From NCBI GenBank assembly GCA_019192455.1, contig JAHCML010000005.1, forward strand, positions 32,324 to 48,185: a stretch of DNA of 15,862 nt, read 5' to 3'. The notes beneath the pieces were generated by a model, which saw nothing but the letters and a program-made list of their open reading frames with translations, searched no databases and had not been told where the DNA came from. Made by a program: the position numbers and the translations under genes. Shown in pieces: positions 4,301-11,981 of the stretch; position 1 is the stretch's first letter, and every line of letters begins with the position of its first letter. The stretch comes from Alphaproteobacteria bacterium SS10 (GTDB lineage Bacteria; Pseudomonadota; Alphaproteobacteria; TMED2).

Positions 4301-4528
4301 GATCTGCCAGGGCGATGCCTGGTCAATCAGGTGTTGGGGGTTGGGGCACGGAACCGGCGGCTCGGGCCGCAAAGACCGGCAGCTGGGGGAGGGTTGTGTT
4401 GCCCTGCTCGCTAGACCCCGACGCTGTTCACCAATGGTAAATTCCCAAGGGCAATCAACGCCGGCGCGTTGCAGGGCGCGGCAACATCCCGTCCATCCGG
4501 GCTAGTTTTGGAGACCGTCACAGGGTCG

Positions 4529-4600
4529 TGCAAAGCGTGGGAATCGAACCCACAACAATCAGATCCTGAGTCTGATGCTCTACCGTTGAGCTAGCTTGCT
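4529..4600 (-). tRNA. tRNA-like element or tRNA pseudogene: class-I cloverleaf with anticodon CAG and a defective acceptor stem.
   Basis: The minus strand reads AGCAAGC-TA-GCTC-AACGGTA-GAGC-A-TCAGA-CTCAGGA-TCTGA-TTGTT-GTGGG-TTCGATT-CCCAC-GCTTTGC-A (72 nt). D-arm, anticodon arm, 5-nt variable loop and T-arm are canonical. The acceptor pairs only if one A is added to the 5' strand (GCAAGC against GCTTTGC). CAG would decode Leu, but Leu tRNAs are class II with a long variable arm. Confidence 0.45.
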
Positions 4601-4975
4601 GGGACGATTGGATATCGTCGGCAAATCGACCAGACCGATGGCGCATCCAAACATGGGCCGTGGCAGTGCCAAGCCATGTGGGCGAGTAAATTTTGAAACT
4701 CTGACCATGTGTCACCTCCGGGTTATTCCGGTCGAGGGTCGCGGTGGATACGCGAAACACGAATCACTGGCAACAAGAAATTTTCGGGCCCTAGCTGTCT
4801 TGTTCTGGGTGTTGGGTCGGATTTGGCAATAAAACATCACCAGACATCGCATGTTCAGAATGAATATTTCGATCTATAAGTAATCATCGTATCATTCATT
4901 GCGTTTTTTGAATGCGTTGCAAAAAGCTATTGGCGGAAAGTGCCGGTGCTGGCAGCCTAATAGAACAGATCGCCG

Positions 4976-5003
4976 ATGGGCGGCGATCTTTGTTCAACTC
5001 GAA
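4976..5003 (+). terminator. Orphan intrinsic-terminator-like hairpin.
   Basis: agatcgccg-atggg-cggcgatct (9-bp perfect stem, 5-nt loop) followed by tttgtt. There is no upstream plus-strand CDS. Confidence 0.35.
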
Positions 5004-5564
5004 CGCAACCGATTGTTAGAACCACTAGGGAGAGCTCGATGCATAGTTATGTATCCATTCACATGTGCTCCACCGGCTTTGGTTCTGAGCTTGTCTTAAC
5101 CGACCGTCCGAATAAGGGACGCCTCCGTTAACACCCGCTCGGTCCAACCGGAAACGCTTACCAACCTTCCGGGTTTGGACGATTAAACGACGATTGGTTT
5201 GCCCCAGTTACACTTGCTGGGACCCAATTCCGCAAAATTGATCAGGATGTCTGGCTTAGGTCGTATTGCGACCTTGCTTTGCTACCCCTCACGCTACCGG
5301 TGTCTCGATATGCCGGTTACGGGACGCATAACCGCCATCAATCCATCCAATCCCGGCCATGGGTGCGCCGATCTTTAGTGATCTACAGCGCACATGGAAT
5401 GGGCCGAGCGTTTGTTAGAGCACGCGATCCACCACCAATGCGTCTGAGCGTCGGCGGTGATGATCGCCATCCATCAAGGGTATTGATTATTTGAAGAAGG
5501 GAGTACGGCCAGCTACGGACCCCACTAAGCAAAGGCTTAGATACAAGGTTTAGGGGTCGGCCGT

Positions 5565-7520
5565 ATGAAGATGATGGCTGAAGATTTTGATGATGATTTA
5601 GATGACCAGGGCGACCATGACCGTACCGGTCGTATGAGAAGCCGCAGTGAATCCGCGGCCCTCTACGCCAAGACATGGGCGTTCTCTTGGAACTACTGGC
5701 GCCAGCACCCCAAGCTGTTTTGGGGCGTGTTTGCCATGACCTGCCTCATGATTGCGGCGGATGTGGTGTCACCTTGGCTGGCCGGCTCGATCGTTGATGC
5801 GATCGTGGTTGATGCCAGTGCCAGCACTGCCCTCTGGGCGGTGGCCGGTTATGTGGGGATCATGGCGCTTTTCCATGGTTCCAAGCACATCACCGAGCAG
5901 CTTTGGATCCGGCTGGCGCCGATGTGTATGGAGCAAATCGTCAATGATGCGTTCCAACGCGTGCAGCGCTTCTCCTCGGACTGGCATGCGAACAGCTTTG
6001 CCGGTGCCGTGGTCCGCAAGATTACCCGCGGTAAGTGGGGCTTCGACCTTTATGGCGATACCCTGCTTTGGGGAGTGTTTCCCGCTGCGGTGATCTTGAT
6101 CGGCTGTACCCTCGCCCTTGCCATCCAGTGGTGGCAGGTGGGCCTCTTCGTTGGGGTGACCGGGGCGATCTATGTGGTGGTCAGCGTGATGATGGCCGTC
6201 CATTGGATCGGACCGGCAAACCAGCAGCAGGTGGCCCAGGACAGCAAGATCTCGGGCCTGTTGGCTGACGCCCTCGGCTGTAATGCCGTGGTGAAGGCCT
6301 TCGGTTCTGAGGCGCGGGAGGATCGCCGCATCGCTAAGGCGGCGCGCCTCTGGCACTTGCGGGCCCGGCGTAGCTTGGGTCGGGCCGTTGGCTCAGGCGG
6401 GTTCCAGTCCATCATGGTGACCATCATGATGGCGGGCGCGTTGAGCCTGGCAATCTGGCTCTGGCATGTGGGCCAGGCGACCAGCGGCGATATCGTCGTG
6501 ATCATGTCGACCATCCATGTGGTCAACGCCTATCTGCGGTTTGTTGGGCAGCATGCCGAGCATCTGCAGAAGTCGGTGAACGAGATGGAAGATGTGATCC
6601 GCTTCATGGACCAAGAGATCGCGGTCCGTGATGTGCCCGGGGCCCCACCTTTCCAGGCGGCTGTTAATGACAGTCAAGAGGGCGGTGGTGCTAAGGGCGG
6701 TGAGATCCGCTTTGAGGGTGTGACCTTCCGCTATGGCGGGCAGGTGGACCCGCTCTACCGTGATTTCGATCTGGCGATTAAGCCGGGCGAGCGGGTGGGG
6801 CTGGTTGGGCCTTCGGGCTCAGGTAAGTCGACCTTCGTGAAGCTGTTGCAGCGGCTTTACGATTTGAATGATGGGCGGATCGTGATCGACGGTCAGGATA
6901 TCGCACTCGTTCAACAGTCGAGCTTGCGCCGTGCGCTTGCCATGGTCCCGCAGGAGCCGGTGCTGTTCCACCGTTCGCTCGCCGAGAACATCGCCTATGG
7001 ACGGCCAGGTGCCGGCCGGGCGGCGATCGAGGCAGCGGCGCGGGAGGCCCTCGCCCATGACTTCATCATGCGCCTACCCCAGGGTTACGACACCCTGGTC
7101 GGTGAGCGCGGCGTGAAGCTCTCGGGTGGTGAGCGACAACGGGTGGCAATTGCCCGCGCGTTGTTGGCCGATGCACCGGTCCTGATCTTGGATGAGGCCA
7201 CGGCGGCGCTGGACAGCATCGCCGAGGCGGAAATCCAGCGGGCCCTGGGTCGCTTGATGGCCGGTCGGACCACGCTCGTCGTGGCCCACCGTCTGGCAAC
7301 GGTTCAGGGGATGGACCGGATCCTGGTGTTCAACCAGGGCCGGATCGTCGAGGAGGGCAGCCATGCGGCCCTGCTGCAAAGAGAGGGTGGCCACTACCGC
7401 GCCCTGTTTGAGGAGCAGGCCCTGGGCCTAATGGATGGCCTAGACGCCAGCCAGAAGGCAGCCCTACTAGCCGGCCAAGCGCCAGCCATTGAGGCACATC
7501 TAAAAAACGGCGCTGCGTAA
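5565..7520 (+). CDS. ABC transporter, fused permease/ATP-binding protein (type I exporter, MsbA-like).
   Basis: 651 aa. The N-terminal half has multiple hydrophobic TM segments. The nucleotide-binding domain has Walker A GPSGSGKST, ABC signature LSGGERQRVAIARAL, Walker B ILDEAT and H-loop VVAHRL. There is an acidic N-terminal extension (DFDDDLDDQGDHD). Confidence 0.9.
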   Translation: MKMMAEDFDDDLDDQGDHDRTGRMRSRSESAALYAKTWAFSWNYWRQHPKLFWGVFAMTCLMIAADVVSPWLAGSIVDAIVVDASASTALWAVAGYVGIMALFHGSKHITEQLWIRLAPMCMEQIVNDAFQRVQRFSSDWHANSFAGAVVRKITRGKWGFDLYGDTLLWGVFPAAVILIGCTLALAIQWWQVGLFVGVTGAIYVVVSVMMAVHWIGPANQQQVAQDSKISGLLADALGCNAVVKAFGSEAREDRRIAKAARLWHLRARRSLGRAVGSGGFQSIMVTIMMAGALSLAIWLWHVGQATSGDIVVIMSTIHVVNAYLRFVGQHAEHLQKSVNEMEDVIRFMDQEIAVRDVPGAPPFQAAVNDSQEGGGAKGGEIRFEGVTFRYGGQVDPLYRDFDLAIKPGERVGLVGPSGSGKSTFVKLLQRLYDLNDGRIVIDGQDIALVQQSSLRRALAMVPQEPVLFHRSLAENIAYGRPGAGRAAIEAAAREALAHDFIMRLPQGYDTLVGERGVKLSGGERQRVAIARALLADAPVLILDEATAALDSIAEAEIQRALGRLMAGRTTLVVAHRLATVQGMDRILVFNQGRIVEEGSHAALLQREGGHYRALFEEQALGLMDGLDASQKAALLAGQAPAIEAHLKNGAA

Positions 7521-7533
7521 TAGCGGTGTTAGG

Positions 7534-7565
7534 AAGCCCGGGGGTCAATGCTCCCGGGCTTTTCC
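7534..7565 (+). terminator. Rho-independent terminator of the ABC transporter gene.
   Basis: aagcccggg-ggtcaatgct-cccgggctt followed by tttcc, 14 nt after the stop codon. Confidence 0.65.
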
Positions 7566-7602: not shown

Positions 7603-7693
7603 TGGTGGGTCGCCAAGGAATCGAACCTCTCGCTGTAACCACCCCAAGATTTTACAGCACAGCGTTTACAGCGCCGCATGGGGAAAGCGACCC
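7603..7693 (-). tRNA. tRNA-derived element (91 nt, CCA encoded): Tyr-like anticodon stem-loop, no foldable D-arm, oversized variable hairpin. Probably a pseudo-tRNA or remnant.
   Basis: The minus strand reads GGGTCGC...GCGACCC-A-CCA, a perfect 7-bp acceptor, with T-arm AGAGG-TTCGATT-CCTTG. The internal hairpin CGGCG-CTGTAAA-CGCTG gives anticodon GTA. Only 7 nt separate acceptor and anticodon arm, so there is no D-arm. The motif GCTGTAAA is duplicated and forms a 7-bp variable hairpin. Confidence 0.45.
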
Positions 7694-7843
7694 AAGAGTA
7701 ACTAATTTTGATGTGTGAATTTGGCACGCAGTCTCACCGCAGCGGGATTTTCCCGCTGCGCTAAAAATTAACTGCAATAATAATATATAAGAGCGTGCAT
7801 AGCCCGATAAATGACCGTTTTTTAATCGTAAGTCAAATTTAAA

Positions 7844-7861
7844 TTCGATGTATTTACATCG
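7844..7861 (-). terminator. Putative terminator hairpin of the AT-rich orphan gene.
   Basis: tcgatgt-attt-acatcga (7-bp stem) lies 30 nt downstream of the stop at 7892 on the minus strand and is followed by an A/T-rich tract (auuuaaauuu). Confidence 0.35.
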
Positions 7862-7891
7862 AGCGGCCCTAGCGTCGGTTGGCCAATGGCT

Positions 7892-8708
7892 TTATCGTTG
7901 CCGCATAAGCCAGTTCCTAACTTCCCGCATAGACTCGTTGAACTCGCGAGGGTGCCAAGGAAGCTCTAGAGATTCTTCAATTGGTCGTGCACACTCAAGC
8001 ATTCTGATGCCATCCCATCTTTTGAGCACGTAGATAGCCAGATCCTCGCTGCTCATTTTGCCGATACTACTCTTTAGATGAGAGAGCATTTCGCTCGGCA
8101 TTGATTTGACGATTTTTTTGGCAAATTTGCTTATTTCTTTTTGGGTTTTATTTTCTATATTTTCTATTTCTTGTCTTTTCCATAATGAATTTATGAACAT
8201 ATAGGCTGATATTTTGTTTTTACATTTGTACATGTCCCCTTTTTTATGTACAAAATCATTTATTTTGAATGATTCCATCAATTTTCGATATAAATTATTA
8301 TTGGGTGTAAAGTATTCTATGCTGCTACTCACCCAGCCAAATTGGTAGGAATTTTCCAGTATTATATTAATAGACCTATCAATATCTTGTTCTGATAAAT
8401 TTGGCATTGAAATTATCAGCTCATGTATAAGATCTGATTCAATGATTTGTTCGGATATTCCTTTTTCAAAATCACTTTCTATTATGTTGTATTCTACTAG
8501 AAGGTAATATGCGCGTTCGCCGCTCGACACATATCCCGTTTCAATTTGGTATGCTTTGCGATTGTCGCACCACCATCTTGGAAGGCTGTCGGCTAAGAAA
8601 CCCAGTATTGTGCTTAGGAGTAAGATCTGATCATCAGTTGCTTTCTCTGAAATCATCGACGAATCCTCAATCACGTAGTTGTTCTCAGTGAGGTTTTCGG
8701 TGGCCATT
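7892..8708 (-). CDS. Orphan hypothetical protein encoded in an AT-rich (foreign) islet.
   Basis: About 272-aa ORF at roughly 30% GC, against about 60% in the flanks. The likely start is ATG at 8708 (MATENLTENNYVIEDSS), with GGGAGGGAG about 15 nt upstream. The ORF track's 359-aa version extends the frame into unrelated GC-rich DNA. The protein is I/N/K/E/S-rich with no recognisable motif. Confidence 0.6.
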
Positions 8709-8765
8709 GATCCCGCGCCTATCTCCCTCCCATGAGAGAGAGTACGGTAAAAAGCCGCCATCGAC

Positions 8766-8860
8766 CGACCAATAAATGCAGGTCTATTACGATGGGTCTT
8801 GTCCCTTACGTCGTAAGGAGTTCGCCTGGTATGGGCGCCGGGAGATTGAGGCGCCAATCT
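8766..8860 (+). pseudogene. Duplicated 5' fragment of the DUF393/DCC thiol-disulfide oxidoreductase gene.
   Basis: About 90% nucleotide identity over about 85-95 bp with 9654-9740. It encodes MQVYYDGSCPLRRKEFAWYGRREIEA, against MQVYYDGSCPLCRKEIAWYERRGIEA in the intact gene. The second Cys of CxxC is lost and similarity ends after about 28 codons. Confidence 0.6.
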
Positions 8861-8947
8861 GCCCGGTCCTAATTGTTTTCCCGCTTTCACTGGTTGAGCG
8901 TAAACGCGACGGATACCCGAAACACTATGGTTACAAGGATCAGCGCC

Positions 8948-9574
8948 ATGGCCACCGGATATCCCTTGCAAGATGATGAGCTAACCCAGGCTGACTTCGC
9001 CATCGCCTTGAGTGCGATGCCGACCCATAAGAGCCATTGGAGTGCGACGGATGAACGGCGGGCGCTGTATCTCGATCTGGCTCGAATGTCCGAGGGGCTG
9101 ACCTTCATCGATGAGGCGCGTGGTTTTCGCTTCCCCTGCGTCCGGGCCAGCTTCGGATATCTTGAAGACATCATGGCCGCGATCCCGCAGGCCGCCGTTC
9201 AGGCCGGTGCCATCTCCAATGAGATGGGCATATTTCAGGGTCGTCATGATTCAATCGTCGAAGATCAGAAGGGTGGCTATGCCGCTGGCGCTCAAGCGCC
9301 CTCCATCCGCGCTGCCCTGCTCTATGACGTGAAGAAGGATGAGGTGGTTGGCCTATCCGGTGCCGGTCGGGTTGCGCTGGCGATGCTAGACGCGGAATTC
9401 TCCGGACAGTTCTCCCCGCAGAATTTGCGCGAGCGAGGCCTCGACTATTTCAATAAGCAGTTGGAGGCAGCCGGGTTCGACCCCATGACCATGCCAGCGC
9501 CCAAGGCTGACCGGCAGGGGGCGGCACCCAAGCCAGATGCACCCGACGGCACCGGTCGGCCCATGCGGCCCTAG
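8948..9574 (+). CDS. Hypothetical protein.
   Basis: GC-rich ORF. ATG at 8948 with AAGGAT 8 nt upstream. Alternative starts at 8927 or TTG 8873. No recognisable motif; the C-terminus is Pro/Ala-rich. Confidence 0.5.
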   Translation: MATGYPLQDDELTQADFAIALSAMPTHKSHWSATDERRALYLDLARMSEGLTFIDEARGFRFPCVRASFGYLEDIMAAIPQAAVQAGAISNEMGIFQGRHDSIVEDQKGGYAAGAQAPSIRAALLYDVKKDEVVGLSGAGRVALAMLDAEFSGQFSPQNLRERGLDYFNKQLEAAGFDPMTMPAPKADRQGAAPKPDAPDGTGRPMRP

Positions 9575-9623: not shown

Positions 9624-9998
9624 ATGAGCAAACCAGCCGACCAACAGCAACAAATGCAGGTCTATTACGACGGGTCTTGCCCCCTATGTCGTAAGGAGAT
9701 CGCCTGGTATGAGCGCCGGGGGATTGAGGCCGCCATGTGTGATGTGAGTGAGGCTGCTAATGTACCCGGCGATCTGACGCCCGAGGCCGCCATGGCGCGG
9801 TTTCATGTGCGCGATACCGATGGTCGGCTGCTCTCCGGCGCTGAGGCGTTTGTCGCCACCTGGCGGGTAACGCCGGGGCTGAAATGGCTGGCCGTCCTGT
9901 GCCGGCCTAGGCCGGTTATCTGGGTACTGGAGCGGCTGTATCGCCTCTTCCTCCATATCCGCCCGCAGATCCAAAAATTTGCACGATCCCTAACCTGA
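9624..9998 (+). CDS. DUF393 / DCC-family thiol-disulfide oxidoreductase (YuxK-like).
   Basis: N-terminal MQVYYDGSCPLCRKEIAWYERRG with a CxxC motif, diagnostic of the family. About 124 aa from ATG 9624, which is the family size. The ORF-track start at 9537 is probably too far upstream. Confidence 0.75.
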   Translation: MSKPADQQQQMQVYYDGSCPLCRKEIAWYERRGIEAAMCDVSEAANVPGDLTPEAAMARFHVRDTDGRLLSGAEAFVATWRVTPGLKWLAVLCRPRPVIWVLERLYRLFLHIRPQIQKFARSLT

Positions 9999-10145
9999 TC
10001 CACCAATCTGTTTCCACCCGGCCCCATGGGCACCGCATTCACAATGCTGCTACAGCGTTGGTTCCCAACGCGAACGCGCTAGCACCCGGTCAGTCTCGGG
10101 ATTAGGGTGGTGGCAATCTGTTCTCGCAAAAATGAAGACACTGCC

Positions 10146-10841
10146 ATGACCATCAAACTCTACGACCTGGCCGGTGAAGATTTGGAGATGCGGTTTAGCC
10201 CTTTTTGTTGGCGGACCAAGCTGGCGCTCGCCCATAAGGGGCTGGCATTCGAGACCATCCCCTGGCGCTTCCATGAAAAGGAGGCGATTGCCGAGAGTGG
10301 CCAGCCCAAGGTTCCGGTGATCGTTGATGGCGATAAGTGGATCCATGATAGCTGGGCCATCGCTGAGTATCTGGATGAGGCGTATCCAGATTGCCCGATG
10401 CTGTTCGCGGGCCCAGAGACGAAGGCCCATATCCGTTTTCTCGATGCCTGGATTGGCAAGGTGCTGTTCCCGGCGATTGCCAAGTCGGTGATGGTGCCGC
10501 TGCAGGATGTGATTGCTGAGGAGAACCGCGCCTATTTCCGGGAAACCCGGGAGAAGGTGTTCGGCATGACCTTGGAGCAGCTAGGTGAATTGGCGCCATC
10601 GGCGGAGGAGTTCTACGCCATGCTCTCACCGCTCCGCTCGGTCCTTGCCAAGCAACCGTTTCTGGCCGGTGATGCGCCAGATTATGGGGACTACCTGCTG
10701 TTCGGCCCGTTCCAATGGGCGCGCTGTTCCTCACCAGATGAGCTGCTGGCCGCCGATGATCCGGTTGCCCAATGGCGTGGTCGTGTTCTGGACCTCTATG
10801 ACGGTTTAGGCCGCAACGCCCCCGCCCGTTGTGCCGCTTGA
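10146..10841 (+). CDS. Glutathione S-transferase family protein.
   Basis: Thioredoxin-like N-terminal domain (TIKLYDLAG..SPFCWRTKLALAHKGLAFE..VPVIVDG) plus a helical C-terminal domain. 231 aa from ATG 10146. Confidence 0.75.
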   Translation: MTIKLYDLAGEDLEMRFSPFCWRTKLALAHKGLAFETIPWRFHEKEAIAESGQPKVPVIVDGDKWIHDSWAIAEYLDEAYPDCPMLFAGPETKAHIRFLDAWIGKVLFPAIAKSVMVPLQDVIAEENRAYFRETREKVFGMTLEQLGELAPSAEEFYAMLSPLRSVLAKQPFLAGDAPDYGDYLLFGPFQWARCSSPDELLAADDPVAQWRGRVLDLYDGLGRNAPARCAA

Positions 10842-10853
10842 TCGGGTTTGGCC

Positions 10854-11981
10854 ATGAGTGACGAAACCAAGGCTGGTTCTGCTAAAGGTGATGTTGCGGC
10901 AATAATCCGCGCGGCGTTCCGCGAGGGTTGGATGGCCCGGCATCAGCTTCGCGAGCCGGATGAGAACGATGTGGAGAATGACTGGATCATCTCTGAGGCG
11001 CGCAAGGCGGGAACCAGTGAATTCAAGGCGGTGACGCCAGAGTTAGTCCGCGACTGCTACCGCGCCCTGCTAAAGCGTGAGCCAGAGAACGATGATGTCG
11101 TTGCGGCCAGGGTTGCGGGGACGTCGAGCGTCTCTGATTTGCTCGAATCCTTCCGTCGATCACCAGAGCTGCTGCACCGGGCCTATATTGAGTATCTGCG
11201 GCGGCACAGCCCAGCGCTCAAGCCAAAGCCCCGGTTCGATCTCGATATAGCGCCGGACCAATTCAACCGATTGTTTGAAAGAGTAGTCACCCAATGGAGT
11301 GACCTTGGTCAGGCCGAGCCCTATTGGTCCGTGCTGACAGATGAGAAGTACAAAAGCGATGCGATTGATGAGGAGGTGCGGCAACGCTTCTACGACACTG
11401 GGAAGGATCTAGAACGGGAATTGAGACAGCTCCACGCCCGCAATGACGTGGCTTTTCAGGGTGGTGTCTGCTTGGAGCTCGGCGCGGGTGTCGGACGGTT
11501 AACCACCACATTGGCAAAGATGTTTGATCGGGTTATTGCGGTCGACATCTCACCGGGGAACCTAGAGATATGCAGAAAACATCTAGAGAAAAATAATATA
11601 GATAATGTCGATTTCAAAATTATATCCAACCCAGAACAGATTGGTGAATTAGAAAATTTTGATTATTTTTATTCGTTAATGGTGCTGCAGCATAATCCGC
11701 CGCCAATTCAAGAGTATATACTGGATATAATATTTAGAAATCTGAATGAAGGTGGGTTTGTTAATTTTCAACTGCCAACCAGTACGCCAGAATACCAGTT
11801 TGATATTGAGGCTTATTTGAGCTCATCACGCCAGGTTATGGATATGCATGATTTACCCATGAGTCGCGTATTCAGGCTTTTCCAGCGTCATGAAATCTTA
11901 CCGATAGATGTGATTATGGATAGCCACACGGGCACGTTTGGATCTCATAGCTTCTTCGGCCAAAAGCGGTCGGGGTCTTGA
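10854..11981 (+). CDS. Class I SAM-dependent methyltransferase with an N-terminal domain of about 200 aa. Compositional mosaic.
   Basis: Motif I LELGAGVGRLT, post-I acidic VIAVDIS, DYFYSLMVLQH and LNEGGFVNFQLP. It starts 13 nt after the GST stop. GC drops from about 60% to about 35% at about 11560 and recovers at about 11920, all within one intact frame. Confidence 0.75.
   Translation: MSDETKAGSAKGDVAAIIRAAFREGWMARHQLREPDENDVENDWIISEARKAGTSEFKAVTPELVRDCYRALLKREPENDDVVAARVAGTSSVSDLLESFRRSPELLHRAYIEYLRRHSPALKPKPRFDLDIAPDQFNRLFERVVTQWSDLGQAEPYWSVLTDEKYKSDAIDEEVRQRFYDTGKDLERELRQLHARNDVAFQGGVCLELGAGVGRLTTTLAKMFDRVIAVDISPGNLEICRKHLEKNNIDNVDFKIISNPEQIGELENFDYFYSLMVLQHNPPPIQEYILDIIFRNLNEGGFVNFQLPTSTPEYQFDIEAYLSSSRQVMDMHDLPMSRVFRLFQRHEILPIDVIMDSHTGTFGSHSFFGQKRSGS

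Follow-up and report, generated by a model that had tools for sequence, protein, structure and literature searches.

An AT-rich orphan gene in a variable, possibly defense-type slot beside an ABC exporter gene of Alphaproteobacteria bacterium SS10

The window analyzed here is a stretch of 15,862 nucleotides from contig JAHCML010000005.1 of Alphaproteobacteria bacterium SS10, and it contains an AT-rich islet (positions 7694–8765) with one long open reading frame (ORF), referred to below as the orphan, which codes for a protein of 271 residues. The reading that we favor, with a probability of about 0.5, is that the islet occupies a slot that is conserved in position and variable in content, located between the terminator of an ABC exporter gene and a glutathione S-transferase (GST) gene, and that the orphan is a gene of defense type. 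The two parts of this reading differ in strength. The islet is very probably acquired accessory cargo in a hotspot; that the orphan represents a new family of single-gene anti-phage or abortive-infection proteins is a tentative proposal, derived from its position. What is new is this instance of the slot and the singleton protein, the kind of slot (single-gene AT-rich cargo between core genes) being known.

Results and discussion

The slot in related lineages

Relatives of the locus were found by a metagenome scan combined with a protein search with the ABC exporter, which gave three further lineages. A scan of GTDB species with the ABC protein revealed no close relative and no synteny, and synteny was also absent from relatives at the level of Pelagibius (ABC protein 54% identical). 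In all three additional lineages, an islet of low G+C content (GC) follows directly after the ABC terminator, with its gene or genes on the strand opposite to the ABC gene. Each of the four related lineages has a different, unrelated gene of low GC (30–38%) at the slot, always convergent with the ABC gene.

The best represented allele, seen on L084, L083, and L163 (ABC protein ~80% identical; five contigs from several samples), has a DUF4238 gene 50 nt past the ABC stop codon. This gene has a GC of 0.30 and codes for a protein of 277 residues that matches the Pfam model at 1.3e-20; it is followed by higA and higB, which are GC-normal, and then by the GST gene. Outside the slot, no segment of the 22 kb of L084 falls below 42% GC. 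A GOS contig, L093, on which the C terminus of the ABC protein is 90% identical, contains a 1.45-kb islet (GC 0.28–0.44) whose SIR2-like gene is fragmented; this gene matches PDC-S25, a PADLOC candidate, at 2.6e-37, as well as the ThsA and SIR2 models. In L164 (ABC protein 78% identical), the slot holds an ORF for a 157-aa protein with multiple transmembrane segments (GC 0.38; L164:6284–6757, minus strand), for which searches of Pfam and PADLOC gave no match.

Across L084, L083, L163, L164, and L093, the ABC exporter orthologs show 78–90% amino acid identity to the protein of the window, and hairpins equivalent to the ABC terminator of the window are present in L084, L093, and L164, the low-GC cargo of these relatives starting right after them. 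The flanks are retained to different extents: the ABC gene is kept in all four alleles, the GST gene forms the right flank in L084 and L163, the right flank of L093 is different, and contig L164 ends before this point. We found no similarity among the four cargoes (the orphan, the DUF4238 protein, the SIR2-like protein, and the 157-aa membrane protein), no boundary motif common to the alleles, no att-like repeats around the islet, and no integrase or recombinase in any of the four alleles. A preliminary description of this DNA had proposed that the islet is horizontally acquired, and had named conservation of the low-GC segment in both position and sequence across the genus as one of two results that would speak against this; the position proved to be conserved, but the sequence did not. 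A low-GC feature that is kept in position and not in sequence is the pattern of a gene-turnover hotspot.

Known or candidate defense families are present in two of the four alleles (DUF4238 and PDC-S25; n = 4), together with one higBA pair. A single DUF4238 protein protects Escherichia coli against T7 (PMC9122126), and defense hotspots flanked by core genes are a documented architecture (PMC10250203). It is because anti-phage families account for two of the three other occupants, one of which has higBA beside it, that we read the orphan as a putative anti-phage or abortive-infection gene.

Two further observations concern the relatives themselves. On L084, higB, higA, and the DUF4238 gene are co-oriented (L084:12055–13560, minus strand), higA and the DUF4238 gene being only 68 nt apart, and the three may form a single operon composed of both GC-normal and GC-poor genes. 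L164 has two further low-GC segments inside upstream genes (L164:2251–3150).

Composition and coding content of the islet

The abrupt fall in GC that the preliminary description placed at 7694–8765 was evident as a real trough in a sliding GC profile, a check that the description had itself proposed. The islet has a GC of 0.393, compared with 0.626 in the 1 kb before it and 0.590 in the 1 kb after it, and the drop from the surrounding level of ~60% is sharp. The size of the drop, given earlier as ~30% GC over ~1 kb, was overstated: the deep trough, with a GC of 0.29, extends over ~450 nt (the AT-richest core in Table 1), and the lowest 100-nt windows (GC 0.23–0.24) lie at 8100–8300. The orphan ORF is a mosaic, with a GC of 46% over residues 1–70, 28.5% over residues 71–215, and 51% over residues 216–271.

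The orphan is the sole long ORF of the islet and is intact, with its ATG at 8707 and its stop codon at 7892–7894 on the minus strand; the single ORF described earlier (7892–8708, ~272 aa) is thus correct except for an end point that was one base off. When the 816 nt of the ORF were shuffled, 271 open codons were reached in none of 5000 mononucleotide shuffles (maximum 191) and in none of 5000 first-order Markov shuffles (maximum 231). Since none of these 10,000 shuffles reached the observed length, the ORF is not a chance product. Its overall GC is 0.375, its GC at third codon positions (GC3) is 0.40, versus 0.62–0.77 in neighboring genes, and its index analogous to the codon adaptation index (CAI-like index) is 0.39, versus 0.64–0.72 for the neighbors, with the other genes of the window as the reference. 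The codon usage of the orphan is foreign, in agreement with what the preliminary description expected from such an analysis.

The expression signals are less distinct. A weak Shine–Dalgarno sequence, GGGAGGGAGA, ends 15 nt ahead of the first ATG, and GAGGA, located 7 nt ahead of the internal Met18, is a better placed one that marks an alternative start. A hairpin follows the stop codon (7845–7862; Table 1), and hairpins of this terminator type are not more numerous than in shuffled sequences. The ribosome-binding site and terminator that the preliminary description assigned to the orphan are therefore present, but both are weak.

The orphan protein

The orphan is an acidic protein (pI 5.3) of 32 kDa that is predicted to be soluble, with a grand average of hydropathy of −0.48, a high content of S, E, I, L, K, and N, and no hydrophobic or transmembrane segment (Kyte–Doolittle maximum of 1.17 over 19 residues). 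No credible match at E ≤ 10 came from Pfam, PADLOC, NCBIfam, or PHROGs, nor did a sequence search of the PDB yield one, which bears out the earlier statement that no family is recognizable. The sole match in 5.8 billion clustered proteins (word-indexed search) and in 1.84 billion representatives (exhaustive HMMER search) was P0001, and no relative was found in IMG/VR, among the INPHARED phages, or among the PLSDB plasmids. P0001 is encoded on L082, a contig of 1166 nt from a second metagenome sample that represents the same locus at 99.6% DNA identity. The orphan is therefore a strict ORFan. Taken together, composition, codon usage, strict ORFan status, and absence from every relative support the horizontal acquisition proposed in the preliminary description.

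Several specific identities were considered and rejected. VapD was suggested by a lone NCBIfam hint (E = 0.032) with a score of 14.6 bits against a cut-off of 100, which is noise. For DUF4238 (PF14022), there was no Pfam match at E ≤ 10, and BLASTP against the DUF4238 protein of L084 gave an E value of 1.1. An abortive-infection (Abi) protein or toxin of the HEPN type is not indicated, as none of the four histidines is preceded by an arginine at a spacing of 4–6 (Rx4-6H) and no HEPN or Abi model of Pfam matched. A type II toxin–antitoxin module would need a co-oriented partner ORF, which is not present beside the orphan, and an integron cassette was set aside in view of the lack of an integrase and of arrays.

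The second metagenome copy also bears on whether the locus is real. Within the orphan ORF, L082 differs from the window by the loss of one T from each of two T runs (window positions 8149 and 8244) and by an A>C change (8222), all in the AT-rich core, and its reading frame is broken; the deletions reflect either real decay or homopolymer assembly errors. We considered that the ORF might be spurious or the assembly chimeric, given that the data come from metagenome assemblies and that the orphan has no homologs for a test of selection. This explanation was rejected as having a negligible probability. The ORF is far longer than those of the shuffled sequences; the junction to GC-rich host DNA on the right was assembled independently in L082, and so is not chimeric; the same sequence is deposited in the NCBI metagenome-assembled genome "Alphaproteobacteria bacterium SS10" on a 238-kb contig; and the matching islet of the L084 type was recovered on five contigs from different samples.

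The tRNA-Tyr-like element and the far side of the islet

The degenerate tRNA that the preliminary description noted beside the islet was confirmed as a tRNA-Tyr(GUA)-like element (Table 1). ARAGORN calls it as Tyr-GTA at a relaxed threshold only, and the Rfam match, to tRNA-Sec, is sub-threshold (21.6 bits, E = 0.059). It folds with a complete acceptor stem and T arm and retains the terminal ACCA, the D arm is absent, and the z-score of its fold is −2.2. Because a canonical phage tRNA-Tyr (L169) has the same acceptor stem, we take the element to be derived from tRNA-Tyr. A covariance model of the element found no copy in L083, L084, L093, L163, or L164, and the element is thus part of the variable segment rather than a conserved host tRNA locus.

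The closest relatives of the element are found in two IMG/VR contigs, L167 and L168, which represent true marine phages, as they encode a major head protein, a scaffold protein, PhoH, and a head–tail adaptor. The phage elements also lack the D arm and are missed by ARAGORN, and their last 25 nt are identical to those of the window element. The window and phage elements align end to end, and RNAalifold keeps 21 pairs, six of them through changes on both sides, for what are only two sequences and hence too few to prove a structure. Outside the element, there is no DNA similarity to the phage contigs, and the window contains no second copy of the 3′ end of the element as a direct repeat. The element could be a functional non-canonical tRNA and not a pseudogene. 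It also has an internal TTTACAGC duplication (7651/7665) in the window.

On the other side of the islet, the duplicated DCC fragment noted in the preliminary description was found as well. Positions 8770–8861 are 87% identical to 9648–9739, the start of an intact DCC1-like gene, the alignment extending to 8762/9638, and the CxxC motif is changed to CxxR in the fragment. The fragment sits within the 240-nt divergent region between the orphan and a gene for a 208-aa protein, and the two DCC copies, as direct repeats, bracket the latter gene and not the islet. The 208-aa protein is a second strict ORFan, with no match in Pfam or PADLOC and only itself as a database match; its gene has a GC of 0.61 and host-like codon usage. 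The orphan gene and this divergent gene open with the same 10 nt, ATGGCCACCG (M-A-T), at 8698–8707 and 8948–8957. The two copies, separated by 240 nt, form a perfect inverted repeat that encloses the DCC fragment and may be due to chance.

A tblastn search with the DCC1-like protein gave no match in L083, L084, L093, L163, or L164, and since the slot of the relatives lacks this gene, we count it into the variable segment. As the preliminary description stated, the window has no integrase; among both the ORFs of the window and the called genes of a longer stretch of the contig (L001), Pfam revealed no integrase, recombinase, or transposase. Phage genes other than the tRNA-like element were not found in the window.

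Table 1. Features of the islet, its surroundings, and the phage homologs of the tRNA-like element
Feature	Position	Strand	Remarks
ABC exporter gene	5565..7520	+	Pfam ABC_membrane and ABC_tran; left anchor of the slot
Terminator hairpin of the ABC gene	7534..7563	+	AAGCCCGGG / CCCGGGCTT, followed by a T run
tRNA-Tyr(GUA)-like element	7603..7693	−	Co-oriented with the orphan, ~200 nt downstream of it
Perfect 10-bp hairpin in AT-rich spacer	7738..7760	.	CGCAGCGGGA / TCCCGCTGCG; inverted repeat without a U-tract on either strand
Weak terminator-like hairpin	7845..7862	−	30 nt past the orphan stop codon; 7 pairs, 3 of them G–C; tail ATTTAAATTT
Orphan coding sequence, 271 aa	7892..8707	−	MBV6633173.1, hypothetical protein KI792_09095, Alphaproteobacteria bacterium SS10
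AT-richest core of the islet	8050..8500	.	GC 0.29; codes for roughly residues 71–215 of the orphan
DCC1-like 5′ pseudogene fragment	8762..8861	+	−14 to +86 of the gene; translation MQVYYDGSCPLRRKE
Second strict ORFan, 208 aa	8948..9574	+	MBV6633174.1; between the two DCC 5′ copies
Intact DCC1-like thiol-disulfide oxidoreductase gene	9654..9998	+	Pfam PF04134, 3.1e-20
GST gene	10107..10841	+	Right anchor; 62% amino acid identity to the GST after higBA in L084/L163
Phage homologs of the tRNA-like element, 91 nt	L167:11628–11718; L168:12730–12820	−	Inside a 13-tRNA array

Origin and function of the islet

If the slot turns over as proposed, cargo would be swapped by recombination in the conserved flanks, or it would arrive by illegitimate insertion next to the convergent terminator, and the duplicated DCC 5′ end, the phage-type tRNA-like piece, and the second ORFan could be scars of repeated events. 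The orphan would then act in the cytoplasm as a soluble, acidic, helical protein of 32 kDa. The preliminary description had guessed at an anti-phage, abortive-infection, or toxin gene; the DUF4238 gene beside higBA and the SIR2-like PDC-S25 gene in the sister slots lend this guess indirect support, but the orphan itself has no PADLOC match.

A number of observations weigh against a defense function. PADLOC-DB 2.0 returned 0 families for the orphan at E ≤ 10, and no recognizable catalytic motif (Rx4-6H HEPN motif or P-loop) could be read from its sequence. AlphaFold2 run without an alignment gave all-helical models with a predicted local distance difference test (pLDDT) score of 38.6 for the full-length protein and 52.6 for the C-terminal 122 residues, which are unusable, and the best E value of 0.75 in a Foldseek search of the PDB with the full-length model is meaningless. 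No sigma-70-like promoter was found upstream of the orphan, which adds to the weakness of its Shine–Dalgarno sequence. The frame-breaking deletions in L082, unless they are assembly errors, may indicate that the gene is dispensable or decaying. Finally, the positional argument draws on just four alleles, from relatives at the genus level that also differ in gene content elsewhere, and one of the other occupants, the L164 membrane protein, also has no assigned function.

Among the other explanations, the one that we regard as the least improbable, while still unlikely, is that the islet is a decaying remnant of low-GC marine phage DNA, made up of a tRNA-array element and an adjacent phage ORFan, without a current function in the host; the ORF would then be a gene such as a moron, an anti-defense gene, or a superinfection-exclusion gene. 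AT-rich strict ORFans are typical of phage genomes, and this account agrees with the full-length homolog of the tRNA-Tyr-like element in the arrays of two phage contigs, the identical last 25 nt and shared lack of the D arm, the absence of the element from the other alleles, and the frameshift in the L082 copy. Against this reading, no homolog of the protein was found in phages or viral contigs, the DNA similarity ends at the tRNA-like element, other phage genes are absent from the window, and part of the match is expected, as the 3′ ends of tRNA-Tyr are conserved in general (L169). Moreover, an intact ORF of 271 codons in DNA of 29–50% GC argues for recent or ongoing selection. A phage gene that serves exclusion or defense would also fall within the defense-type reading, so that the two overlap. 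We likewise consider it unlikely that the orphan is an acquired accessory gene unrelated to defense (a solitary toxin or addiction gene, a regulator, or a niche factor) in a slot that is simply a permissive landing site beside a terminator. Insertion beside convergent terminators would be minimally disruptive, and neither the L164 membrane protein nor the neighboring 208-aa ORFan has a defense signature; set against this are the defense families in two of the three other occupants, one with a toxin–antitoxin pair, and the lack of an antitoxin-like partner ORF beside the orphan.

The model put forward in the preliminary description, in which an integrase-mediated island entered at a tRNA gene, lost the integrase afterward, and was left behind as a stranded remnant, did not hold up and is now very improbable. 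The islet does resemble such islands in being compositionally foreign DNA that adjoins a tRNA-derived sequence, and there is a gene-fragment duplication on its far side. Islands that target tRNA genes sit 3′ of the tRNA, and the islet is on the wrong side of the element, 5′ of it. No direct repeat of the tRNA 3′ end, and hence no att repeat, occurs anywhere in the window, the three other alleles fill the slot without a tRNA, a tRNA-like sequence, or an integrase, the DCC repeats flank the 208-aa gene instead of the islet, and the element itself lies in the variable segment and resembles a phage-array element. A similarly slim chance is given to the idea that the orphan and the tRNA-Tyr-like RNA constitute a two-part protein–RNA module, for example for defense or counter-defense with the RNA as a tRNA-like decoy, sensor, or antitoxin, in which the RNA would possibly be produced by read-through of the weak terminator of the orphan. 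Both components are allele-specific, and the RNA keeps its helices through two-sided changes relative to the phage homolog. tRNA-Tyr is a battleground between defenses of the retron and Septu types and phage-encoded tRNAs.

Relation to known systems

With respect to the preferred reading, a variable slot with a defense-type orphan, the protein has the general properties of lactococcal-type Abi proteins, which are family-poor, soluble proteins of ~200–350 residues encoded by single, horizontally acquired genes of low GC. It differs from them in lacking a match to the Abi models in Pfam and PADLOC and in belonging to a different host phylum.

The slot resembles the core defense hotspots (cDHS1–3) of Pseudomonas aeruginosa (Johnson et al. 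2023, PMC10250203) in that flanks are conserved, content varies and includes known defense families, and no recombinase of its own is needed. The differences are that the present slot is tiny, with a single gene or at most ~2.6 kb of variable sequence rather than multi-system islands, that every occupant is low in GC and convergent with the ABC gene, and that just four alleles from uncultured genus-level relatives are available, so that enrichment in defense genes is not statistically established. The antiviral hotspots of P2-like phages and P4-like satellites (Rousset et al. 2022, PMC9122126) also exchange single-gene, AT-rich, and often family-less cargo at a fixed position, and include a single-gene DUF4238 system, DUF4238 being one of the alleles seen here (L084). 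In contrast to those hotspots, the present slot is chromosomal and located between housekeeping-type genes, not in a prophage or satellite, and the orphan is unlike DUF4238.

Should the pattern suggested by the four alleles hold, the slot would be a compact, recombinase-free defense hotspot in an uncultured marine alphaproteobacterial lineage, and the 271-aa orphan and the 157-aa membrane protein of L164 would be candidates for new single-gene anti-phage proteins. Searches guided by hotspots have repeatedly uncovered new systems in E. coli and Pseudomonas, and the sampling of marine oligotrophs is still very sparse. The gain is nevertheless modest, as it concerns one singleton protein and the principle of a variable defense slot flanked by core genes is already known.

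Other features of the window

Beyond the right anchor, a gene for an S-adenosylmethionine (SAM)-dependent methyltransferase (10848–11981, plus strand) shows a second dip in GC (0.36–0.44 at 11500–11900) over its catalytic domain, the gene as a whole having a GC of 0.50 and a CAI-like index of 0.53. In L084, only the N-terminal residues 19–57 of this protein remain, as a fragment (L084:15838–15954). From this pattern, the methyltransferase gene may be chimeric or partly acquired.

To the left of the ABC gene, the sole tRNA called by both ARAGORN and Rfam (4528–4599, minus strand) has the anticodon CAG (Leu) and A73 as discriminator. It is just 72 nt long, with a short variable loop that gives it a class-I shape, whereas a long variable arm is the norm for bacterial tRNA-Leu. 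It adjoins a stretch of lower GC (~0.45 at 4650–5100) and has no counterpart in L083, L084, or L093. The region upstream of the ABC gene (21–2819 in the window and L084:800–7500) contains tandem paralogs of DUF6782, a putative metallopeptidase, and also of the hypothetical proteins of 188 and 322 residues; L084 has several copies at 28–41% identity, which suggests a locally expanding gene family.

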